Assembly (NCBI GenBank): GCA_026770705.1
Contig: JANJGN010000036.1
Location: 1,178,001 to 1,242,000, forward strand
DNA length: 64,000 nt
From: Isurus oxyrinchus
Taxonomy: Eukaryota
Reading direction: 5' to 3'
In this document: positions 1 to 57,260 of the stretch, piece after piece
Layout: each line of letters starts with the position of its first letter
Position numbering within the stretch: position 1 is the first letter of the stretch
Made by a program: the position numbers and the translations under genes
Notes under the pieces: generated by a model
What the model was told of the DNA's origin: nothing
The model's database searches: none
What the model saw: the letters and a program-made list of their open reading frames with translations, nothing else

Positions 1-329
1 CCTGCTCCTATATCTTGTGTTCATGTGTCTGTCTAAGCATATTGATATGGTTGGATGCCACCGGATAATTTGTCAGTGTGTAATATTGGAAAATATGATT
101 ACATTCCCAGTGTACCACTTTCTCTCACCATGCCTGTGTAAAATTATCTATTCATATCTCTGCCTGCTTAACATTCACGATATTTCTTGATGTCTTAGTT
201 AAACAGTGAGGTATAAGATATCTTCACTATCTGCGTGACTATCTGTTGATCTGTTTATCCATCTCTCTTGCTCTGTATCAATCAATCCATTCCTGTCCTC
301 GTGCAGTTTAAGATAGCTGATATATTTGC

Positions 330-1745
330 CTGTCTGACAGTCTCTCTCTCTCTGCCTCTTTCCCCAACTCCACATCTCTGTATTTACCGGTTCCTCTCGC
401 TGTTTATCTATTGACTTTGTGTCTGTCTCACGCTGTCTTTATCCTTTCTTACATGTATAGATATATCTTTCTAAAAGACTCTATCTCTGTTTATTTGCCT
501 ATTTCTATCCCCGTTAAATGGTATGATCTAAGCGATCTGTGGCATTCATCTATCTTCCTGTCTCTTGATCTGTCACCATCTTTCCCTTTCTCTATTTTTC
601 TCTCCCTGTCTTTATCGTGCTCTTGCTCTATCCTTTTCTATCCAGTTAAACAGTTTGTCATAGTTATATGGACTTCCTATTACACTCTCTTCATCACCCA
701 ATCTCTCTCTGTCCAACTAGCTCTCGATCCAACTCTCAATCCATCTCTCCATCCATCTCATACTCCAATTCTCCCACTCTCCTAAACTTCCGCTCTCGCT
801 CCCCATCTCTACCCAACTTTCCTTCTCCCCCTCTCCACAGCTCTGTTCTGCCCTCTCTCTCTTATCTCCCATTTCTTCCTCACTCCCCAAATCTATCCAA
901 TTCTCACTCCTCCCTCTCTCCCTCTCCCCCTCTCTCCCCAAACCTCCCTCTCTCGAACTCTCCCTCTCTCCCCTACCCCCATCTCTTCCGCTCTTTATCT
1001 ATCTGCCTATCTCTCGCTCTCTCAATCCCTCTCTCCATATCTCTCCCTCTCCTCCTCTATCCCCAACTCTCCCTCTCTCCACCATCCCTCCCTCTCTCCA
1101 CTATCTCCCCATTTACCCCTGCTCTCCCTCACATCTCCCTCTCTCTGCATTTCTCTTCGCTCCCTCTCTATGCCCCTCTCTCCTTTGCTTCCCCTCCTTC
1201 CACCTCGCAATTCTCTCCTGCTCTTCAAATTTTTCTCTCCGTATTTCTATCCTAGTTAAGCAGTTTTCTCTAAGTGACCTGATCCCTCGATCACTCTCTG
1301 TCCATCTGTCGGTGGCTTAATATTTCTTTGCTATTAAAACAGTGCTTTGTCTACCATTCCCTGTCATTCTCCTTCTATCTCTCTTCCGTTATCTCTTTGT
1401 TTGTACCATTTAAATATTGTTCAAGAAGATTGCTGCACTCCCTCTGTTGCTTCCTCTCTCTCTTTCAGTCCCTATAAACAAGGCTCTGTCTACCTCCCTT
1501 TCACACTTTCCCTCAGTGTCCTATTCAAACAGCCTTTTTAAAGATCTCAGCTCCATCGCTCTTGTTATTATTCTCCCTCTCTCTCACTCCATATTATATA
1601 TATATATTTTTTTTTTTTGTCCTGGTTAAACATTCATTTATAAGATCTCTGCTCTCTCTTCCATCCATCTCGCCATTTCTCTCTCTATCTCTTCCCCCTC
1701 TTTCTATCTCTTTCTGCTTCTGTCATGTTTCAACAATCTTCTAAA
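330..1745. repeat. CT-rich low-complexity polypyrimidine tract in the C1-TM intron of type I gene copy 1
   Basis: Long degenerate (CT)/(CCT) tract; paralogous tract at 35660-36850; explains the spurious Ser/Leu/Pro ORFs. Confidence 0.9.
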
Positions 1746-1893
1746 AGATCTGTGCTCTATTTCCGGATAATGAAATATGCAAAAATCTATTTCCGTCTCC
1801 ATTTGAAATCACATGTTCAGATTTCACACTTTCCCCCCAATTATTTAATTAATTTCATAAGCTTTCTTTGAAATGATAGTTTTTTTTTTGCAG

Positions 1894-2013
1894 ATTCTCC
1901 GCTCTTAGCCACCTGCTGTTTCCTGCTTCTTGGAGGTTTGGCAGCAGCTGCGCTTCTACTTCTGGGGATGATCCTTGTTGCCAGGAAAAGGAGCTGCAGG
2001 AACAAGCAGACAG
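1894..2013 (+). CDS. Type I V-C1 receptor copy 1: connecting peptide/transmembrane exon
   Basis: tttttgcag acceptor, G|gtagcg donor, 120 nt, phase 1-1; (D)SPLLATCCFLLLGGLAAAALLLLGMILVARKRSCRNKQT; same-length paralog at 37020-37139. Confidence 0.85.
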
Positions 2014-2149
2014 GTAGCGATTGTTGGGAGGTGCTGTAACTCCGCGGCGCTGTCAATCTATCCATTTATCTGTGCGTTGTTGACACCTTCAGCCAGTTCA
2101 GTGTCAAATGTAGCCACTAACACACAGTTCAAATATTATTTTCTTACAG

Positions 2150-2208
2150 GCAGCATGAATATAGATGAGGAAATGCAAGGTTCCAGTGAACAAGGAGAGA
2201 ATAAAAAG
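2150..2208 (+). CDS. Type I copy 1: cytoplasmic exon 1
   Basis: ttcttacag acceptor, AAG|gtaaag donor, 59 nt, phase 1-0; GSMNIDEEMQGSSEQGENKK; 59-nt paralogs at 37272 and 47676. Confidence 0.8.
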
Positions 2209-2827
2209 GTAAAGGAATGGAACTGTTGTTGCCACTGCGCGTGGATACATTTCACTGAATTGTAATCAAAGATTTAAATTTCATAGTTACTCCGATGAAT
2301 CTAGAAAGTGTTGCATCGTGGGCAGTACAGGATGGCAGAAACTAGTCTTCAAGCCCTCTCATGGGGAGGATGAATGGGTGATCTACTCGAGGGGATTCAA
2401 AATCATTAAAAGGTACAATCACGTGTATGGACAGAAAACATTTGCTCTAGTGTTGAGCGTGGGGAGGGGTCGGGGGTGTGCCTGGCGTGTAGAACAGGAG
2501 GGCAGAACTTTAGCATAACGCTAGGGCATTCAGGGTTGATGTCAGAAAGCACTAAGTCACACAAAGGCGCATGGAAATCTAGAGCTCTCTCCCCTCAAAA
2601 GCTCATGAGGCTGCGGGATCAACTGGAAATGTCAAAACGGAGATTGGTAGATTTTTGTTGGGTACGGGGATCAAGGACTATGGAACAAAATTGGGCAGAT
2701 GGAAATTATGATACAGATACGCCATGATCTAACTGAATATACTGCAGGGTCCAAATGTCCTCCTCTTATTCCTATGACGATGGTGTTTGTTATATTAATA
2801 GGTTCGGTTTTTATTGTTTCTCCACAG

Positions 2828-2872
2828 ACACTTTATGCCCGCTTGGCCTTTAAGCAGGATCCCACACTCTGA
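2828..2872 (+). CDS. Type I copy 1: terminal coding exon with ITSM/ITIM-like motif
   Basis: tttctccacag acceptor, phase 0; TLYARLAFKQDPTL*; stop position conserved in paralogs at 37968-38012 and 48118-48162. Confidence 0.85.
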   Translation, partial: TLYARLAFKQDPTL

Positions 2873-3714
2873 TTGACGAGTAAAGAGAAATAGAGCTCAC
2901 AGTCTTCTTCCCAAACATGGGGTGTTGCAGAAAGTTTCCTCTGTTGGGCGGGAAAGACCAAAAGTCCAACCAGTGCAAACTCAGGCGCATTCTCAGTGCA
3001 ATTCTGTGATGTTGCCCAAAGCATGAACTGAATAATCTTTTAATGCACGGTATTTCAAAGATGAATTATCGCCTGCAGTTCCACTCCAGCCATCCAGGTT
3101 TCTGTTATCTAGTTTATTATGGCATTCTGCATCTTTATTCAATATGTCAGCAAGAAATTATTCAAGCAGGTTTTATAATGTGTCTGTGCTTGAGTTACCG
3201 ACATATTAAAAAAGATTTGAAAACCAAAGACAGCTCTGTGCTATCATTTTATTGTTCATTCAGAGCAGATGAGCCCAGGATATCCCTGAGGCCAATTTAC
3301 AAAGTCATGTTTAGAGCGAATGTAAGCAGGATAGAAGCCGGATCAAGGACCAGCATTTACTGGATGGGGATGTAGGCTGCATTGATATGGAAGCTGCAGT
3401 GTTAGTGGACCCCAAGCCCTCACTGGTTGTGTCCTGGGAGGGAACAATATTACATTTACTCTTGAAAGAATATTATTGACAATCCATCCGCTCTTTTGTT
3501 CATAAAATTTAATGCATTTCAAAGACCAAAATCTCTGGTTCAAGGCACTGAAAGCACAGGAGGAGGAAATTTGAACATCAGTCAAATGCTTTAGTAAATT
3601 TGATGTTTCACAGAGATGATGTAATCTATTTCGATGACAACTTTCATTTCATCAATATTAAAAAGCTGGTTTGGAAACCGTTGGTAATCTGATTATCGGA
3701 TATTTATGTTGATG

Positions 3715-3889: not shown

Positions 3890-4755
3890 TGGAACCAAGG
3901 TGGGTAGATAGAAGTTATGATACAGAATCGTCATGATCTAAATGAAAAGATTGGAGGTGCTGAATGGTCTCTTCCAATCCCTTTGATGATGGTGTTTGTT
4001 ATATTAATCGATTCGGTTTTTATCGTTTCTCCACAGACACCCGTTGGCCTTTAAGGATATTGCTGACACTGAGGTGATTCGGAGGAGGTTCTTTAGATTG
4101 ATTCCACAGTTGGGGGGCTTGTCTTCTGAGGAGAGATTGAGCAGCTTAGGCCGATACTCGCTAGAGTTTAGAAGGGAGATAGAATATTGAATTGAGGTAT
4201 ACATGATGCTTTGGGGACAGACAAAGTAGACGTCGAGCGGATGTTTCCCCTTCCCCCTATGAAAGGCCATAGTTTTAGGCTAAGGGGTGGTAGATTTAAA
4301 TCAGCGATGAGGAGGAATTACTTTTCATAAATGGTCGTGAATCTGTGGAATTGACTCCCTCAAAGTGCATTGGATGCCAGGATGCTGAATAAATGTAAGG
4401 AGGAGATAGGCAGATTTTTAATTAATAATGGGTTGAAAGATTATGGGGAGAGGGTGGGAAATTGGAATTGGGGATGAAATTAGATCAGCCATGATCACAA
4501 TGAATGGCGGGACAAGCAGAATCGAGGGGCTGAATTGTCCACTCCTGATCCTAGTTCTTATGTTCTTAGGAGGATAGCACAATCTGCTGTAGAGAAAAGT
4601 GGGAGAAAGAACACAATCTGCTTCACGAACATAACGTGTTGGAGAAAGTTTCCTCTGTTGAGCGGGAAATTCCAAAAACACAACTGGTGAAAATTCAGTC
4701 ACATTCTTGGGGCGATTTTGTGATGTCAACCAAAACATGAATTGAATAATCTCTT
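3890..4755 (+). pseudogene. Local duplicate of the type I terminal exon/3'UTR, tyrosine codon deleted and split by a LINE
   Basis: 3890-4058 and 4571-4755 are homologous to ~2680-3040; acceptor ctccacag ends at 4036, followed by ACAC-CCGTTGGCCTTTAAG lacking TTTATG. Confidence 0.75.
4060..4570 (+). mobile_element. CR1-like LINE 3' end (5'-truncated)
   Basis: C-terminal ORF2 remnant (YSLEFRR..., R.VNLWN.LP) and typical 3' tail; probable AGGATA target-site duplication. Confidence 0.8.
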
Positions 4756-21574: not shown

Positions 21575-21894
21575 GTGAGGATCGAAGTTCTCTGTCAAGC
21601 TCCCTCCCACCTCGGAAGGAATGGACTCAGGATTGGCCACTGTGTCCTGCCTGGTGAGTGGCCTTATGCCAGGTTTCGTGCGGGCCCTCTGGAGTGTTAA
21701 GGGTAAACATGGAGAGAGCAGAGTGAGGACGAGTCCTGCTTCCTGGACAGCGATCAAACTTACAGCCTGAACAGTTACCTGGGAGTGCTGACCACTACCT
21801 GGAAGGAAGGCTCCAATTATTCCTGCGGTGTCAGCCACAGTCCCTGCACTCACCCCTTATCAAAACGATCAGCCCAAGTGGTTGCTCGCTCTGA
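21575..21894 (+). pseudogene. Immunoglobulin light-chain constant exon relic, most like cartilaginous-fish type I / sigma-cart
   Basis: Across frameshifts reads SEDR/KFSVKLPPTSEGMDSGLATVSCLVSGLMPGFVRALWSVKGKHGESRVRTSPA/LDSDQTYSLNSYLGVLTTTWKEGSNYSCGVSHS/SPLIKTISPSGCSL*; both C1 Cys, Trp, YSC.V.H and C-terminal interchain Cys present. Confidence 0.85.
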
Positions 21895-30200: not shown

Positions 30201-30845
30201 CTGACAAATATCTTTATATGTGTCCATTGTTATCAGTTGTCCCGTGAACGTGCTTTAATTAGGAGACAGATTCTTAGCATCGAGTGAATTCCTGCACCTG
30301 ATCCTATGAATTAAAAACCTTCACCGAACAGATCACCAACTCATCTGTCCCTGTCTCTGCTACTTTGGCCCTTAGTCCAATATTTGTTTGGAGAGCCCAG
30401 ATGAACGATACAAGTAGGGGGGCCACCGGTTCTCCTGGTTGCAATCAGCACCATGGCGTGACATCTGATGCTGTAGGTTCCGTCCGCCTCCCTCGTACCG
30501 GGATTCTGTAAGTGGAGAGATTATAGTTAGATTGTCACTGGTTATTGAGGGATAGGAAGCACTGCCTTGAAAGACATAGTGAGTAATTTAAGAACAGTGA
30601 CATCATTATCTTTAATTATTCTTAGATTAAGTCTCTCATTTGATTTTCTTCGCCTTATAAGAGGGACAAGTAAATAAACTCATAGGATCAGGTCAAATGC
30701 CTTCACCTGTTCACTGGGTAACATTTTAAACTTAGTTAACAATGATTCTGGCAGATTGCAGTTTACCATTCTGATCCGTCTCTGATTCACCACAAACCCG
30801 CAGCACTTGGAAAACAAGTGTCTAATGCAGAGATCCCTTGGACAG

Positions 30846-33181: not shown

Positions 33182-33224
33182 ATGAGCTTCCTTGCTGTGT
33201 GTGCATTGTCCCATCTGTTCCAGG
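33182..33224 (+). CDS. Gene A leader exon
   Basis: MSFLAVCALSHLFQ G|gtgaga, phase 1; splices to give ...FQVIMS-QPVLSQSP; conserved in relic at 22662. Confidence 0.8.
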
Positions 33225-34256
33225 GTGAGATACCTTAACATGTTCACATAGAATGGAGCAGAGTTGGGATGGTGTAAATAAGGAGATATTGTTTCCAATA
33301 GCAGGAGACCCGGCAACCAGAGGGACACAGATTGAAGAGAACTGGCAAAAGGACCAGAGGGGTTGGGAGAATGGGGACGAGAATATCTTTTCTTTACCCA
33401 ATAATTGCTGTGATCTGGAAGGCTCTGCCTGAAAAGGCGATAGAAGCACATTCAAAAGGAAATTTCAAAAGGGAAATTGGATGAGTACTCGATAGGGATA
33501 CATTTGCAGGGATATGCAGATGGAGCGGGGGGTGGTGGGGGTGGGGAGCTGTGGGGGTGGTGGGGGGTGGGGTCAGAATGGGCGATAGCTGGATAGATCT
33601 CTCAAAGTGCCAGCCTTCTGAAGGGCCGAATGGCCGCCACATGTGCTGCACAGATCTATGAGATGCAATTCAGTTATCAGGTTCGATGCAAAAATAGAGC
33701 GAATATAATCAACAACTTGGGAACTGCATCGGTCAGGAACAATAAATGGAATTCGTCGGAAAGATAACGTTCCCTGGTTTAGAAGAGGTGAGTGGCTAGA
33801 TCGACATTATTGTTGATTGAGAAGAGGACAGAGTTTCAATGGATTATTAGAGCGAGTTATGAAATCTGGAACAAAATAAAAAGCCCAAATCTAACAAAGA
33901 AGAACAGGAAACGAAGGGATGATGAGAGAAGAAATATAAGAGTTCGAAAATTTAGGTTTAAAGCAGTTCTTTTAAGTTATTAACTTCACAAAGTTCCCAT
34001 TTGTGTATCCCAGTGTTTGTCCCAGATTTACTGGTGAATGGACTCGGACTGTGCCTTGGAATCAGAGGAATAGAACGGCCCAAACAACCAACTGTGGGGG
34101 ATTTTTTGATATGAACTATATATATTTTTAATGACCGTGCCTCCTCCCTATCGGGGTGTATTCGTCGGACGCTAGCTTCGGGAGGGAGGCTGGCGGGTGC
34201 GGGGTGGCGGATTGCACCGTAATCTGAGGTAATTTGTTTATTTCTGTCTTGCTCAG

Positions 34257-34595
34257 TTATTATGTCTCAACCCGTCTTGTCCCAGTCTCCACCGGTTCAG
34301 ATACTCCCTGCGGGGAGTCGTGCTAAACTGAGCTGCCTCGTGGAGAGCTCAGTGGTTGGCTTCGTCTTCTGGTACAGACAATCGGAGAGAAACAACATGA
34401 AGCTGGTTTACACAGCAAGCAAGTACCTCCCCGCAGTGGGGAGATTTTCCAGCGAGGCTGGTTGAAAAGCCGATAATTGTTCACTGCTCATTGTGGATAC
34501 CCGGAGAGAAGATTCTGGAAAATATTACTGTGCAATCCGAAATTTCACAAATATGGCCAGAATATTTGGAAATGGCTCCCAGTTAGTGATTACAA
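34257..34595 (+). CDS. Gene A germline-joined VJ exon (Ig V-set)
   Basis: QPVLSQSP...AKLSC...VFWYRQ...RFS...*...EDSGKYYCAIRNFTNMARIFGNGSQLVIT; ag/gt boundaries, phase 1-1; one premature TGA. Confidence 0.9.
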
Positions 34596-34697
34596 GTAAA
34601 TTCCATCATTATTCCATCGAATTGGGTATTTCTACAGTAATTAAAAGTATGTGGTTTGAACTCATAATGGTGTTTTTCTTTCATTTGCCAAATGTAG

Positions 34698-35003
34698 AGG
34701 GCTCCCCCACCATATTACTCCTCGCCCCGCCAGAGAATGAGATTCCCTCCATGGAAAGGGTCCCGTTGTTATGTTTGATCAGAGGCTTGTCCCCCGATTC
34801 CTATCCTTTCCGCTGGAATGTTTCTGGACGGGATACCGAGGGACAGACCGATTCTGGGACAATTGAGACTGACGGGACCTACACCATCAGGAGTTACACC
34901 AGCCTCTCGGCGGAATCTTGGAGAATTGGCGTTCTCTGTACTTGCGCCATTCAAATCAACTCCAGTGAAAATCTTCTCAGTGCAAGTGTCTCATCTCAGA
35001 GAG
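34698..35003 (+). CDS. Gene A C1-set Ig exon
   Basis: PTILLLAPP..E...VPLLCLIRG...FRWNVSG...DGTYTIRSY...ESWR.G.LCTCAIQ; tgtag acceptor; G|gcagcg non-canonical donor. Confidence 0.88.
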
Positions 35004-35659
35004 GCAGCGATTAACAGTGACCGTTTAACAATTTATTTACTGCTGATGGCAGGTGTTGCCAATTTTGTAAATTAGAATTGTCCATTTTTCCGTGTGTGTC
35101 CATGTCGCATCATTTTATCATCGATCTATCATATATCTCTCCATCTTTCAGAGTTAAGCTTTCTGAAATTCTAACTCCATTTGTTCTCTCTACCTCAGAG
35201 GTCTATGGACGCTCTGTCACTGAGAAATATTTTTGTGCGCAAAGGAAATAAGGGATGTGGACAGGGCAGGAAAGTGCATTTAATCTGCAAGATTAACAGT
35301 GGTCTTATTGAATGGATCTCTTTGAGGCGCCGAATCATCTCGTGCTCCTATTTCCTGTGTTCTTGTGTCTGTCTAAGCATGGTTCCATGCTAATGGATCA
35401 TTTGTCAGTGTGCAAAACTGAAAAGCGTGATTACATTCCCAGTGTACTACTTTGTCTCACCATTCCTGTTTTCAATTATCTATTCATATCTCTATCTACT
35501 TAACATTCACAATATTCCTGTCTGTCTTAGTTAAGCGGTGAGATATAAAATATCTTCTCTATCTGTGTGTCTATCTGTTTATCTATCTATCCATCTCTCT
35601 TGCTCCCTATCAAACAATCCATTCCTGTCCTAGTACAGTTTAAGATAACTGCGTTATAT

Positions 35660-36850
35660 ATTTTTGTGTCTGACTCTCTGTCTCTCTGCAACCCTCTCAC
35701 TACCTCTCTCCCCCTCTGTCTCTCCAGGTCCCTCTCACTGTTCGCCACATCACTTTCTCTCTCGCTCTCTGTCTTTATCTATTGAAAAATGTATTCATTT
35801 CTCTATCTATCTCACTTTACCTCTGTTTATCATGTCTATTTCTATAGTAGTTAAATGGTGCGTTATAAGAAATCTGGGACATTCATCTATCTTCCCATTT
35901 GCCGATCTCTCTCCATCTCTCACCCTCTTTCTGTCTCTCTCTCTGTCTCTTTCGCTCTCCCTCTATCCCTTCCCATCCAGTTAAAAATGTTCTGTCTATG
36001 TTTTATGCTCTATCTGTCACACATTCTTCTCTCTATCTCTAAATATCCATGACTTCATTCATTTCTCCGACCATCTTTTTGTTCTGCTTCTCCCACCTCT
36101 CCGTATCTCCCTCTCTGCCTTTCCCCATCTCCCATTTCTTCCTTTCTCCCCCACTCTTTCCAACTCTCCCCCTTCCTCTATCCCTCCCTCCCCATCTCTC
36201 CCAGACCCCAATTCCCCCTCCATCGAAGTCTCCCTCTCTCCCCTAGCCAACATCACTTCCTCTTTCTCCCCAACTTTCCCTCTCTCTCTTGCTCCCTCTC
36301 TGCACATCTCTCCCTCTTCTCCTCTCTCCCCAACTCTCCCTCGCTCCCCCATTTTGTCCTTTCTCCCTGTGTCTCCCCAATCTCTCATTCTATCCACATC
36401 TCTCCTCTCTCCGTCTCTACCCCTGTAAGTGATCTGCTCTCTCTATCACTTTCTGCCCATCTCTCCCTGGCTTAACATTTATTTGCTATTAAAACAGTGC
36501 TCTATCTACCTCTCCCTGTTATTCTCCCTCTATCTCTCTTTAGTTATCTCTCTATGCTTGTCCTATTTAAATAGTGTTCCATAAGATCGCTGCTCTCTCT
36601 CTCTCGCTTTCTCTCTCTCTATTTCAGCCTTAATAAACGTGAATTTATCTATTTCTTTGTCACTTGCTCTCAGTATCCGATTCAAATTGCATTTTAAAGA
36701 TCTCTTCTCATTCTCCATTTCTGTCTCTCTCTTTCTATCTACAGATATCTACCCTGTTTAAGTAGAGCTTTATAAGATCTCTGCCCCTTGCGTTAGTCTC
36801 TCTATCTTTGTCTCTATCGCTTGTCTCTTTCAATCTCGTTCTACTTCTGT
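35660..36850. repeat. CT-rich low-complexity tract in the gene A C1-TM intron
   Basis: Paralog of 330-1745. Confidence 0.9.
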
Positions 36851-37019
36851 CCTTTTTCAATATTGTTCTGTAAGGTCTCTGCTCTATTTCCAGATAATGA
36901 AAGATATAAAAATCTATTCACGTCTCCAGGTGAAATCAGGCATCTAATTTGTGATTATTTTCCCTATATGTTTAATTAATTCCACAAACTTTCTTTTAAA
37001 TTAAAGGTTTTTTTTGCAG

Positions 37020-37139
37020 ACTCTCCGTTCTTTACCACCTGCAGCTTCCTGCTTTCCGGGGGCTTGCTGGTGACGGCGCTTCTCCTTATGGGAGTGATCG
37101 TTGTGGCCTGGAGAAGGAGTTGCCGGACGCAGCAGACTG
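37020..37139 (+). CDS. Gene A transmembrane exon
   Basis: DSPFFTTCSFLLSGGLLVTALLLMGVIVVAWRRSCRTQQT; 120 nt, ag/gt, phase 1-1. Confidence 0.85.
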
Positions 37140-37271
37140 GTACCGATTTTTGGGAGATGCTGTAACTTCGCGGCGCTCTCAATACATCCATTTATCAATG
37201 GGTTATTGACACTTTCAACCTGTTCAGAGTGAAATGTTCTCATGCTGAGTTCAAATTTTACATTCGAAAAG

Positions 37272-37330
37272 GAAAAATGAAGAGTAATGAGGAAATGAAA
37301 GATTGCAGAGAACAACGAGAGAATAAAGAG
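37272..37330 (+). CDS. Gene A cytoplasmic exon 1
   Basis: GKMKSNEEMKDCREQRENKE; 59 nt; weak aag acceptor, gtaaaa donor. Confidence 0.7.
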
Positions 37331-37967
37331 GTAAAAGAATTGAATTGTTGCCTTAAGCCTGGATACATTTCACAAAATGTTAGTCCTAGGTTTAAATTTC
37401 ATAGTTATTGTGATCAATCTAGATAACTTTGCGTCATTGGTAGTGCAGGATGGCAGAAAAAAAAAGCTTCAATTCTTCTCGTGGGGACGATTAAGGGGTA
37501 ATTTAATCGAGAGTTTTAAAATGATAAAAGGATACGATCGTGTCTGTAGAAATAAACTCTTTGCCCTGGTGGAGCGGATCTGGTGTTTGTGTGCGGGATG
37601 AGTAGTAGGTGTTGGCGGGATGGAGTCCAGGACAAGGGTGCAGGACTATAAAATTATCGGGATGTCATTCAGGGGTGATGTGAGGGTGCACTTTGTCCCA
37701 CAAAGGTGAGTGGAAATCTGGAGCGCTCTCTCCTCATAAGTTGTTGAGGCTGCGGGATCAATTGGAAATGCCAAATCTTAGATTGATAGAGTTTTGTTGG
37801 GTAAGGGGGTTAATGATTATGGAACCAAGGTGGAAGTTATGGATGGAAGTTATGGTACAGAACCGCCATGTTCTAATTGAATAGAGTGGAGGGGCTGAAT
37901 GGCCTCCTGCTATCCCGATGATGAAGGCGTTCGTTACATTAACAGATTCGTTTTTTTTTCCCCACAG

Positions 37968-38012
37968 ATGCTTTATGCCCGCTTAGCCTTTAATCAGGAT
38001 CCCACACTTTGA
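37968..38012 (+). CDS. Gene A terminal coding exon
   Basis: tttccccacag acceptor; MLYARLAFNQDPTL*. Confidence 0.85.
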   Translation: MLYARLAFNQDPTL

Positions 38013-38636
38013 TTGGAGAGCAAGGAGGGAGAGAGAGCTCACAGTCCTCTTCCCGAACACGACGTGTTGCAGACATTTTCCACCTTGGACGGGAAATTCC
38101 GAAAATCCAACCGATGTAAATTCAGGCGTATTCTCGGCGCAATTTTATGATGTCACCAAAAGCGGCAACAGAATAATCTCATAATGCCGGCTATTCTAAC
38201 CATGAAATATCGCCTGCAGTTCCACTCCAGCCTCTCCAGCTTTCTGTGATTTGGAATTGGCGTTTACTAATGCACTCTGCATCATTATTCAGTATGTCAG
38301 CAAGATATTATTCAAACAGGATTTACAATGTATCTTGCTCGAGTTACCAACATATTAAAACAGATTTGAAAACCAATGTTAGCTGTGTGATAACAGTTTT
38401 TTGGATCATTCAGAGCAGATGCACCCAGGGTATCTCTATGGTCGATGTAGAAATACATTTATGGAGCAAAGTGTAGCAGGATAGAAGCAGGGTTAAGGAC
38501 AACAAGTACTGGATGGGAGTTTAGGCTGCAGCGATAGTGGACACCGAGCCTTCACTGGTTGTGTCCTGGGTTGAACATTGTTGTATGTACACTTGAAATA
38601 GGATTGTTGACAACCCATCCACCCTTTTTTTAATAC

Positions 38637-51810: not shown

Positions 51811-53340
51811 CTGATTCAGTAAATGATAGAACACAACACAACAGAAAGACACCCACCAGTAACAGCATCTCAATCCAGGACTGATATAGTCAACTCAGGA
51901 GAAATTGCAGCTTTACCAAGGTGACATTTAATTATAATTTAATTATTAATTAATACAAACATCTGGTGCATCGTTATAATCGAAGAATAATTTATTATAT
52001 TTACATACTGACATTTGCCAAGAAATGAACACCCTGTCAGCAAATGGAGTTGCTGAATCAACACTAACTGTCCAGATAAACTAAGGAAAGTTCTGAGTAT
52101 TCGTTCAATGTTTCCTTCAAACTTGAGTTACATGATAACGGTGGGATATCCTTAACAATACTCAAAACAACTTCTACATTTAGCAAATTCAGCCAGCCTT
52201 TGTAGCTCTGAGCAGTAAATGGGGGAAGATAACTGTCTCTTTGTCTCCCGGTTTATATCCACTAGGCTGTGGGTTATTTGGCAAATCCTGTCACTTCCAT
52301 AATGCATCAGAGAGAAACAGACGGGATTCTCATCTGCGACCCCCTTTCTTTTTTGACCTTTTCTCCAATGCAGCCAAGTCCAGTGAGGCGTAGAGAGGTC
52401 CGCCTTGAGTCTGGGAGATATTTTAAACGTCAACAACGAAAAGTATTTTAAAGATAGGTAAGATTGCCCACTCCCACAACTGCATTTCATAGAATCATTG
52501 GATGATACAGCGCAGAAAGAAGTAATTCCACCGATTGTGTAAGTGCTAGCCCTATGAACGAGCTGTGCAATTAGTCCCATTGTACCCTTCTCTGTCCCCA
52601 TATCGCTGCCATTATTTTCACCTTCTACTATTTTTGTATTTCCTTCTTGAAAGTTACTACTGAATCGGTTCCTATTGCTTTCTCAATTTGAGGAAAGTTT
52701 TGCTGCATTTTAAACTACAAGAAACATCTGAATTGATGTTTTCTAACATCGCTGCAGAATTCGCAAAGAAACTGGAAATAATCAAAGTTTAATCAGAAAA
52801 CTGGGTGATGAGTCTATTGATTTGATTGAATTCCTTGATTGTTAATTGGCCAACCCGATTATTGTGTTTCGTCATGTGTCATCTACACAATTTTGTAGAG
52901 TCCACTAAACAGATCACATTTAGAAGAATGACACAAACACAATCAAAAGCTTTGTGTTTTTGTCGCGCCTGTCGCGAACAGAAGAAGCCCCAGAACATTC
53001 AGATCCACTTATTTGAAGTATAGTCTCTGTTCTTGATGCAATGAGGCACTGAATTTACGCATAGTAAGTACCGAAAAACAGCAATGAACTAATGACCTAG
53101 ATAAGTTAATTTTAAAGTGCGGGTTGAGAGATAAATTATGAAACGGGAAACCAGAGAGAACACCCCAGCCACCGCACCCACCATCCCCCAACGCCCCACC
53201 ACCATTCGTCTTGCAATAATGGCAGTACCATCTATCATGCCGACCAGAGAGGTCTAACAGGTCCTCGGTTTAACGATTCATTTGAATTAGACACCTCAGG
53301 GAATGAAGCACACGCTCCGGACGTTCAGTCTAGACCTTCT

Positions 53341-53499
53341 NNNNNNNNNNNNNNNNNNNNNNNNNNNNNNNNNNNNNNNNNNNNNNNNNNNNNNNNNNNN
53401 NNNNNNNNNNNNNNNNNNNNNNNNNNNNNNNNNNNNNNNNNNNNNNNNNNNNNNNNNNNNNNNNNNNNNNNNNNNNNNNNNNNNNNNNNNNNNNNNNNN
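53341..53499. other. Assembly gap
   Basis: Run of N. Confidence 1.
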
Positions 53500-54412
53500 T
53501 TGCAGTGAACTTACAGCAGAAGCAGTTTTAGCCTACGTTTGGCCTGACCTTCATTCTAATTCCATTTGCTAATGTGTTTACTAAATTGGTTGGGTCGGAG
53601 AAGGGGCAAAGTTGTTAAAAGAGGGAAGGGGATTAGACTCACTGTAGAGATTAAAGAAAATAGCACAAATCTAAAATATGAACTGCTGGAAATACGCCAT
53701 TAAATTTGATGGAGACATTCCACCTGGAAAATGGCCCTATCCTTTCTGTTGTCAGATGGGGAAAGGGATTGGGGAATATTTTCTGATTCCAGTTCGAGGG
53801 ATGAGTGGGATTATATACAAATTCAGATGCTCTAGACTATGACCTGCCCTGTGAGAAATGCGTGAAATATTTAGCATGGGAAGCCTTGCACCGTATCCCA
53901 AAAAAATTTGTATGTTATTGCAACAATTTCAAAGCAACTTACTTGTATTGCATCCTGATACGGCCAAGATCCATCTTTTTGATGGTGGTCATCTGTGTTA
54001 TTAATGGTTGAGATAGGAATTGAAATGTTATCCCAGACTGGCTCATTCATAACTATTACAGATATGTCATTCGCCAAAGATATGCCGAAGCACCAATGGC
54101 TCCAGTAATTCTCTTTGTGACCAGGCCCCGAGTCCGTAGAATGTGCCCCAACACGCGAAAGTTCCCTCAAAATTTCAGTGGTGTGAACATCGCCAATCGA
54201 TGGACAAGCACGCTCCACCCACATTGCCTGGCATATATTGTCTTTCTGTCATATTACTGCAACTATTAACAACCAGGAATTGGCATTTTATATGGAAACC
54301 AGAGACAGCAGAGTGGTTGAGAATATAATTGATGGCGGGAAATGCTCTTATGTATCTTTCCAATTCCAAGGACTTGACATTTAATCCGTGCCAAAATCTC
54401 GATGCAACTTAC

Positions 54413-54465
54413 CCGTTTGTCGCTCATTGTGACCTCCTCTTTGCCTTCTCTCCCTCAAGCTGAAC
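54413..54465 (-). CDS. Gene B cytoplasmic exon 2
   Basis: FSLRERRQRGGHNERQT; catccag/gtaagt; phase 2-1; homolog at ~28122-28190. Confidence 0.7.
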
Positions 54466-54696
54466 CTGGATGTGAACAGAATTATCAAACACGTGTTATA
54501 TTTTATGAATACTGGCGCAGGTGCCAGAAATAGGCGAGAAGAGAATGTCAAGTGGCCTTAGAATCAATCTTAAATGCTCACGGAAAATGGCAGCATATAT
54601 CATTGTTATCAGTGTTGGGATTGAACTGGGCTAGGTCCAGTGATAGATATAGAGCGTGGGTTCAGGGTGAACTTTTGAAATGGTTCAGTTACTCAC

Positions 54697-54727
54697 GTTT
54701 CATTGTGGGATCTTTTGCAAGGCTCTC
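54697..54727 (-). CDS. Gene B cytoplasmic exon 1
   Basis: GEPCKRSHNET; tttcag/gtgagt; 31 nt, same length in relic C. Confidence 0.75.
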
Positions 54728-54822
54728 CTGAAAGCAGAAAGTAAATTATCAATTTAAAACTGGAAGGGCATCATTTGAGGCAATCAATTATTAAAATATC
54801 ACTGAAGAATATTAATCCTCAC

Positions 54823-54924
54823 CTGATCTGCCACTTTTACGAATCCAAATTGAAATGAGGACCAGGAGCAGAACCAGTATCACCAGGACAGTTATGATAA
54901 CAGGAAGGACCAGCATGCAAAATC
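54823..54924 (-). CDS. Gene B transmembrane exon
   Basis: GFCMLVLPVIITVLVILVLLLVLISIWIRKSGRS; tctgtag acceptor, G|gtgagg donor, 102 nt. Confidence 0.88.
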
Positions 54925-54999
54925 CTACAGATACAAAATACTTAGAAACTGCTACTCGATGAAATCAACATTTTCTGGTACCCTCTGATGGGAAGCAGT

Positions 55000-55460
55000 C
55001 CATGTGTATCATCGTGCCAGTAGATGCTCTTTGAGAGCGGAACCGAATTAGTGATATTCTCCCTGCCCTTTCTCCCATACGCCTGAAAGTGTCTTTCCAT
55101 TAGTTATTTATCCAATTCCCCTTTTAAAAATTCCTTTTCAATCTGCTTCCAACGCCCTCTCAGGGGGCGCTCTCCAGGCACCATTCAGTGAGTTAAAAGA
55201 GAATTCCCCCCATCTCCCCTGCTAGTTCCTTTGCGATTATCTTCAATCTGTGTCCCTTTGGTTACTGACCCTCCTGCCAGTGGAAACCGTTTCTCCATGT
55301 TTATCCTGTCGAAAAATCTCATGATTTTGAATACCTCGCTTAAGTCTCCCCCTCATCCCTTTCTGCTCTATTGAGAACATTACCAGATTCTACAGTCTCT
55401 CCACAATTACTGAAGTCCCTCATCCCTGGTCCTATTCTGGTGAATCTTCTGTACCCTCCC
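55000..55460 (-). mobile_element. CR1-like LINE 3' fragment in a gene B intron
   Basis: RRFTR..PGMRDFS motif on the minus strand. Confidence 0.7.
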
Positions 55461-55938
55461 CAAAGCATTCTTCCCTGTTTTCCGCTTATAAATTGCATGC
55501 AGTGTGAACTGACCCCAATTTCATCCCAACATCCACTGCCTAAACAGTCCGGCAGAAGTAGATTCAGCATTAACTTTTGGAGGAGAAATCAGATTCTAAC
55601 TTGAAGAGCAAAATGTGGAAGTGTTGTGTAGAAAGGGTGGATCCAATGGGATAACGCTTAAAAAGAGATAGCACTGGCACGATGGGCCGAAGTCGCTCTT
55701 TCCTCATCTATTGTTCTAGGATTGGACGATGTGACCGAGAAATATAAGGCAAGTCGGGAAATTGTTTACAAGGGAAAGTCTACACATGGGGCTAAGGTAA
55801 CACTAACTTATTTTTATCATACTTAGAATATATATATTTATAGCTTGCTTTATAGTTGCAGCTCCCAACAATAAATCAATTTCTCCAATTGACTCTAAAG
55901 TCGCAAAAAAGCCTGCATTGAACACATCGCCTGCTCAC

Positions 55939-56268
55939 CTCCCTCTGACTCTGCTGCTTTCGAGAACGGAAAACTCTTTTTCCAATATTTGCATGGAGAC
56001 CCCAGTTGAACAATACAGGTACAGAGACCGCCACTTCTCCAGGTTTCCCTCGACACCATGACGTGACTTCTGATACTGTAGGTCCCATCCGCCTCCATTG
56101 TACCAGGATCGCTCGGCCCCTCAGTGACCACGCCAGAAATATTCCAGATAATAACAATCTGGTTGGAAGCAACTCCACTGACCAAACACAATAAGGGGAT
56201 CGTTTCCCTCAAATGCAGCTCACCCGGCGGAACAAAGACCAGCACAGCCGTCTTGTTGGTGGAACTGT
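55939..56268 (-). CDS. Gene B C1-set Ig exon
   Basis: AVLVFVPPGE...IPLLCLVSG...IWNISG...DGTYSIRSH...ETWRSGGLCTCIVQ; open 330 nt, ag/gt, phase 1-1. Confidence 0.9.
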
Positions 56269-56357
56269 CTGGACAGAGATTGGGAGACATTTACGATTCG
56301 TTTGCTCCAAATGATAATAATGCGCATGATCTCAATTAATTTCTCTTGCTCTGTTAC

Positions 56358-56678
56358 CTCCAACCAGTAGTGTTGGTCCATTTTGGAGCGGCGCATTGCT
56401 ATCCCTATGAGCACTGTATTAGGAACCCGATTCATTCACCTGGAGATTGCGAATTTCCAGAATCAATTGAAGTTTGTTGTGGCCTTCTTTGGAAATAAAC
56501 TTACAATTGGCCCCCTGACAGGACTGGGTGTCGATTAGTATCGGGGCTTCATCCACACGTTGTTTGTACCAGAAATAACTAGAGACCAATTCCACTCCGT
56601 AAAAGTAGCGAGAGGTTAATTCCACCGTCTTTCCGACTTCAGCTGTCATTATGAAGGGGATCGGAGAGAGCTCGTATT
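56358..56678 (-). CDS. Gene B V-set exon (disabled)
   Basis: TAEVGKTVELT(S)RY...YFWYKQ...APILI...LILEIRNLQVNESGS*YSAHRDSNAPLQNGPTLLVG; ttacag acceptor, G|gtaac donor. Confidence 0.85.
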
Positions 56679-56967
56679 CTGTAACAAGATTGATTATTGT
56701 TACATCACTATCGCTTATTGGGAGATTGTAAGCAGCCGCTATGAAGAACTTCGCCTGTAATATTAAAGTAGTCACATCATTGCCTTTAATTATTGGTGTT
56801 TAGATTAATTCTGCAATTTGAATCCTTCGCTTTCTCGGAGGGAAGACTAAATAAAATCACAGGATCAGGTAAAATCGCTGTACCTAGCCACTAGGTCGTA
56901 TTTTCAGCTTAGTAAACATTGATTTTGGCTGATTCTGCTTTAACATTCTCACGCTCCTCTTACTCAC

Positions 56968-57022
56968 CATAAAGCTGCAGCATTTGGAAAATGAATATCA
57001 GAGATAAATATCCCTTCGACAT
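56968..57022 (-). CDS. Gene B leader exon
   Basis: MSKGYLSLIFIFQMLQLY G|gtgagt, 55 nt, phase 1; same-length relic at 30845-30791. Confidence 0.8.
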
Positions 57023-57260
57023 CTTGATGCGCTGAATTCTCCGTGTTTTCACACTCAGACGATTGTTTGTGCAGGCGGAGTGGCCTCAGACTGACCTGAG
57101 CTCAGTCCCAGTGAGTTGCTCCCCTTTTAGATGCGGTGGAAACTATGACGAGTTATGCTATGGAAAGTATGACACCATTTTGGGTGCGGTGTCGTGGTGA
57201 ATGTCACATGCGTTTGACTTACTGTGGTCTCCGCCTGTGCGCCACAGTTGCCAAGTGGCA
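57023..57260 (-). promoter_or_regulatory. Conserved type II promoter/5'UTR block
   Basis: Paralog of 30846-31085; palindrome 57096-57105, TGTGGT 57223-57228. Confidence 0.55.

Follow-up and report, generated by a model that had tools for sequence, protein, structure and literature searches.

An intact germline-joined VJ-C1 gene within a large shark cluster, most likely akin to PRARP/VJC1

PRARP (Fu et al. 2019) and VJC1 (Ohta et al. 2019) reportedly denote non-rearranging genes in which a single-exon VJ is followed by a C1 domain, a transmembrane (TM) segment and one ITIM/ITSM-like motif. They are said to come as a pair of two related genes, to reach the surface of lymphocytes as homo- or heterodimers, and to have kin among bony fish and amphibians as well as in reptiles and in birds, where the C1 domain has become degenerate. 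Two further groups invite comparison: the NITRs of bony fish, whose second domain is I-type, and the chains of the T-cell receptor (TCR), which carry a charged TM residue. One source places PRARP among VJ genes in the MHC (PMC10751288). Another describes UrIg, secreted and with 3 C1 domains, and UrIg2, with 9–11 C1 domains, a homodimer and a non-rearranging VJ-C1 protein; unsplit VJ genes are sought there as relatives of the gene into which the RAG transposon inserted itself, and a term search there gave no hit to PRARP or VJC1 (PMC12227049).

The gene described here lies in Isurus oxyrinchus (genome 4.98 Gb) on contig JANJGN010000036.1, C36 for short, and straddles the upstream edge of the window, by which we mean the whole stretch of 64,000 nucleotides that was analysed (C36:1178001-1242000). 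The first-pass annotation had described the TM exon and both tail exons, inside the window, as open with canonical splice sites, and so they are, with AG acceptors, GT donors and phases 1-1-0. By collinearity with a broken copy at ~33–38 kb, it had also predicted that the C1 exon would end ~340 nt before base 1, that the VJ exon would lie 750–1090 nt and the leader ~2.1 kb before it, and that a divergent type II partner would stand beyond. We took in the 40 kb 5' of base 1 and confirmed the join to the window. The collinearity is upheld by blastn, and in the 10 kb read upstream the VJ and C1 exons are neither absent nor damaged: they are present and open, at 1087–749 and 646–341 bases before base 1, with the leader starting at 2134. 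The type II partner is there, too, but as a pseudogene rather than a working gene. Spliced from its six exons (Table 1), the focal gene has a 303-aa open frame, phases 1-1-1-1-0, and introns that are all GT/AG. It is an intact six-exon gene for a type I membrane protein with germline-joined VJ and C1.

Table 1. Positions of the focal gene's exons and of related genes (C36 or L011 positions, or window positions counted from base 1)
Feature	Position	Strand	Remarks
Leader exon, focal type I gene	C36:1175867-1175909 (L011:7867-7909)	+	starts 2134 bases before base 1
Single VJ exon, focal type I gene	C36:1176914-1177252 (L011:8914-9252)	+	339 nt, open; 1087-749 before base 1
C1 exon, focal type I gene	C36:1177355-1177660 (L011:9355-9660)	+	306 nt, open; 646-341 before base 1
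C1-TM intron, part in the window	window 1..1893	+	whole intron 2233 nt; 5' exons upstream of base 1
TM exon, focal gene	window 1894..2013	+	120 nt; stalk with Cys-Cys, uncharged transmembrane segment, basic stop-transfer residues
Cytoplasmic exon 1, focal gene	window 2150..2208	+	59 nt, open
Last coding exon, focal gene	window 2828..2872	+	ITIM/ITSM-like TLYARL, stop TGA
Type II pseudogene beside focal gene	L011:5304-4218	-	V with two stop codons; C1 frameshifted
Nearest fully intact type II gene	C36:1150783-1146446	-	canonical in all 8 exons; LYASM in the tail
Broken type II gene	window ~52400-57030	-	one of two more in the window
Broken type II gene	window ~30360-30830	-	one of two more in the window
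Broken type I paralogue	window 33182..38015	+	template of the first-pass annotation; stop in VJ, GC at C1 donor

V and J of the focal gene form one exon, which ends in FGNG and has both cysteines, the tryptophan and YYC. Pfam finds a V-set domain (E 4e-16) and one C1-set domain (PF07654, E 7e-8). Of solved structures, the V exon comes closest mostly to TCR alpha domains, and the C1 exon to Ig constant domains. These likenesses, and the automatic naming of homologues as Ig kappa/lambda-like or TCR-like, are what speaks for a germline-joined Ig light-chain or TCR cluster. That reading is already disfavoured, and we think it highly improbable: light chains have no such TM exon and Tyr-motif tail; TCR chains have the charged TM residue that is missing here; V and J share one exon at the type I loci examined; and V matches off C36 are weak (E 2e-5 or worse, among the matches listed). 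The order leader, VJ, C1, stalk cysteine, TM is indeed that of TCR alpha and beta chains, but the focal gene lacks RSS and rearrangement, carries no charged residue for CD3 in its TM segment, and has a longer tail with a Tyr motif. A rearranging Ig or TCR gene, with split V and J and RSS, was also considered and set aside; besides the single VJ exon, no RSS match with a 12 or 23 spacer occurs in the 6.5 kb scanned, with up to 1+2 mismatches to the consensus tolerated.

Other described families fit in part. As with the NITRs, the focal gene stands in a cluster whose V domains are diversified and carry a J-like motif, and whose tails are of ITIM type; unlike the I-type second domain of NITRs, its own is C1-set. 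With UrIg and UrIg2, as described in PMC12227049, it shares an elasmobranch setting, a non-rearranging single VJ exon, a split leader and C1-type domains, and it differs in its one C1 domain, its Tyr-motif tail and its many copies. Membership among UrIg/UrIg2, with three or more C1 domains, was rejected: the focal gene has one C1 exon, spliced to the TM exon.

The best fit is to PRARP/VJC1. Shared are the single-exon VJ with FGxG and no RSS match, the one C1-set domain, and the TM segment followed by a Tyr-motif tail. Shared, too, is the linked pair of genes, in the shark a head-to-head type I/II cassette (the focal one has a broken partner; in one at ~631 kb both genes are intact), and no C1-set hit is precomputed for the bird relatives, in keeping with avian PRARP. 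The shark cluster differs in its >100 gene copies and relics, and most of its cassettes lack one partner. Judged by these features, the focal family is most likely the shark branch of PRARP/VJC1. The name PRARP appeared on none of 30 looked-up clusters, nor via an ostrich relative. As for a link to the MHC or an MHC paralogon, none of 33 MHC class I matches is on C36 (they lie on C21 and C16), nor is any of nine S100 matches. Among the papers listed by literature searches we found no description of the shark cluster, though absence from print is not thereby established.

Relatives are widespread. Searches with the two C1 exons brought up 15 and 29 proteins of sharks, which automatic naming calls Ig- or TCR-like or leaves uncharacterised. 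The full-length homologues have the leader-VJ-C1-TM-tail layout in common, with RefSeq models that have the same exon products, and their tails mostly end TLYARL-like in type I and LYASL-like in type II. A profile search of a 1.84-billion-sequence library, from which 30 hits and follow-up hits were looked up, found a like layout in rays, sturgeon, paddlefish, gar, bichir, lungfish, coelacanth, newt, turtles, lizards, alligator and birds. One terminal Tyr motif is common to the named shark, ray, bony-fish, lungfish, coelacanth, amphibian, reptile and bird proteins; the bird members have a V-set domain and no precomputed C1-set hit. An unrooted tree built from 40 V+C1 sequences groups the focal gene with shark and ray type I genes (97/98), and a further branch (98/92) separates type II and some bony-vertebrate genes from type I together with reptile, bird, newt and sturgeon 'A' genes. 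The split between type I and type II thus appears, from these sequences, to be older than the split between sharks and bony vertebrates. The tree has no Ig or TCR outgroup, and a single clade of the whole family is therefore not proven; it is in this outgroup-free tree that the bird and reptile relatives fall on the type I side.

In the shark itself, the C1 and V exons have strong matches, among those listed, on C36 alone, between 0.59 and 4.10 Mb. Each cluster search scored 150 candidates, so that counts are lower bounds. We annotated 55 type I loci (52 fetched, the focal gene, the copy in the window and another at 1154 kb). In thirty-one the frame is fully open and the sites are canonical, in 4 the ectodomain and TM survive without the tail, and 20 are broken, one of them scored so solely because its leader was not located. 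To call the focal gene 'the functional copy', as had been done, was right as to the frame, and the frame only; with 31/55 loci open, it is not unique. TLYARL is likewise present, as claimed, yet it is the commonest motif rather than the 'best' one and singles out nothing: it is carried by 21/31 open loci, and is for that reason the usual motif of the family and not a mark of the focal copy. With Thr at -2, it matches the ITIM and ITSM consensuses only in part. Four type I copies (L018, L048, L058 and L065) have ectodomain and TM without a Tyr tail, and two (L066 and L067) have Asn in place of the motif Tyr; it is possible that these are non-signalling or decoy chains.

RNA contigs bear on the splicing of the family. 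Four of five sequencing runs, picked by species label, were matched at 85% likeness, and their status as RNA is a guess. Contigs of the family stop at the leader donor, connect VJ with C1 over a 102-nt GT..AG intron, and have the expected 45 letters from the end of C1 to mid-TM and 175 from C1 to the last exon; the join of the single C1 exon to TM is kept. The exon joins are seen in relatives: near-identity to the focal copy is absent among the RNA pieces listed over its exons (10 differences in 106 letters at the leader, for example), and these pieces look like paralogues. On the strength of such paralogous contigs, the type I family is spliced as modelled. The observation goes beyond chance, since shark RefSeq models share the exon products and exon lengths are preserved in the family's RNA contigs. 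The VJ-C1 intron (L011:9253-9354) is itself in frame and stop-free, likewise in many paralogues (open frames ~260 aa), and one low-depth contig of a paralogue reads through it; if retained, it would put 34 more residues between V and C1.

The type II gene adjoining the focal gene is dead. The two stand head to head, with ATGs ~2.6 kb apart, and beyond the damage listed in Table 1 the type II gene has lost both V cysteines; its frameshifted C1 measures 329 nt. Its TM and first three tail exons were looked for and not found. Where they would be expected (L011 ~1000-3100), there is a stretch that by eye resembles a decayed LINE. Two further type II genes in the window are broken, one with a stop in V and the other with V deleted. 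Of the 31 open type I genes, two have a type II gene with an open ectodomain no more than 5 kb away, and the remaining 29, the focal gene included, do not. Of those two type II partners, one is intact throughout and the other is canonical but for a single acceptor; a cassette with both genes fully intact, head to head, lies at C36 ~625-640 kb. The nearest fully intact type II gene is 25 kb upstream of the focal gene, beside a broken type I neighbour of its own. An idea of reciprocal loss, with one survivor per cassette, was dropped as a rule; whether the type I gene is intact or broken, most type II genes head to head with it are dead.

We think it likely that the focal product is one chain of an inhibitory immune receptor of fixed specificity. 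Its V loops would bind a host or microbial ligand, and its stalk cysteine would form a disulfide link to a type II chain; stalk cysteine and WYxQ-type motif are kept in both chain types, and the cysteine is conserved in shark homologues. Phosphorylated TLYARL would recruit an SH2-domain phosphatase, of the SHP-1/2 or SHIP type, and so inhibit. Each chain has one tyrosine motif, and a heterodimer would supply two. Because the cassette partner is dead, any heterodimer would need the type II chain of another cassette, the nearest fully intact one being 25 kb upstream. Against this reading count the single motif per chain, the partial consensus fit of TLYARL, the Ser that replaces Tyr in the focal copy's WYRQ, and the divergence of the listed RNA pieces from that copy.

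An obligatory, cassette-encoded heterodimer is weakened by the dead partner and by the low count of two in 31. The main rival takes this further: the chain would act alone or as a disulfide-linked homodimer, and the head-to-head type II genes would be dispensable passengers of their cassettes. The 29 type I genes with no open type II ectodomain nearby favour such an arrangement, as does UrIg2, also a non-rearranging VJ-C1 protein and a homodimer (PMC12227049). Partners are available, however. Type II V exon matches number at least 94, at least 40 of them near full length without a stop (most of them judged by the V exon alone, and one known to be broken), and three type II genes have been verified as fully intact; the type I/II split, besides, appears older than the split between sharks and bony vertebrates. 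We give the lone chain or homodimer a real but minor chance, and prefer a type I/II receptor assembled across cassettes.

It might also be that the focal copy is intact merely because it is a young duplicate, silent or drifting toward a pseudogene, or that the repeat to which it belongs is in part an uncollapsed haplotype. Its nearest paralogue lies 141 kb upstream, is intact as well and shares 92.7% protein identity and 94.5% DNA identity over 9327 bases; 24/55 loci are not fully open (one solely through its unlocated leader); and in the focal V core motif, WYRQ, Ser replaces the usual Tyr, a change private to this copy. Against this, the twins have diverged by ~5% with no frame or splice lesion in either, while neighbours in the same block are broken, and their C1 differences are 5 silent and 4 replacement. 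A mere young duplicate is, in our estimation, distinctly unlikely. The block itself is repeated in tandem (C36 ~990-1130 kb against ~1130-1270 kb, offset ~138-141 kb), and the broken type I copy in the window has an intact counterpart at C36:1071370 (L031).

We infer that the family evolves by birth and death, each copy adding one germline specificity. Over 27 distinct V exons, the three CDR-like loops have pooled dN/dS values of 1.02, 1.57 and 1.21; the frameworks have 0.36 (FR1), 1.24 (FR2), 0.82 (FR3) and 0.57 (FR4), and C1 has 0.52 (23 exons). Diversifying selection on the loops is only suggested by these figures, for the pairs are not independent and FR2, too, reaches 1.24. A bolder proposal is that sharks hold a combinatorial, germline-encoded, TCR-shaped inhibitory repertoire, in which ~30 type I and up to ~39 type II chains, their CDR-like loops diversified, mix in trans, in trans because cassette partners are mostly dead. 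We consider this doubtful, though not fanciful. If true, the shark repertoire would serve as an extant model for the two-chain VJ-C1 receptor from before RAG insertion, and the type I/II split would be as old as jawed vertebrates. The focal gene is ordinary within its own cluster, and the weight rests on the family: a large shark expansion of two-chain VJ-C1 genes, auto-named Ig or TCR in the databases, whose pairing, ligand and expression are open to testing. With its own partner dead and an intact type II gene lying 25 kb off, the focal copy makes a handy test case for pairing in trans.

At window ~3890-4060 there is a partial duplicate of the intron end and the last exon, its Tyr motif partly deleted. 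A relic at window 21594-21865 is C1-like but frameshifted and belongs to a more distant kind; no V exon was seen next to it. Outside the count of 55, a second type I subfamily of ~12 more distant loci occupies C36:1.69-3.72 Mb, with 44-49% V identity, a longer VJ-C1 intron and open V exons; proteins of other sharks that resemble it form a clade of their own in the V+C1 tree.
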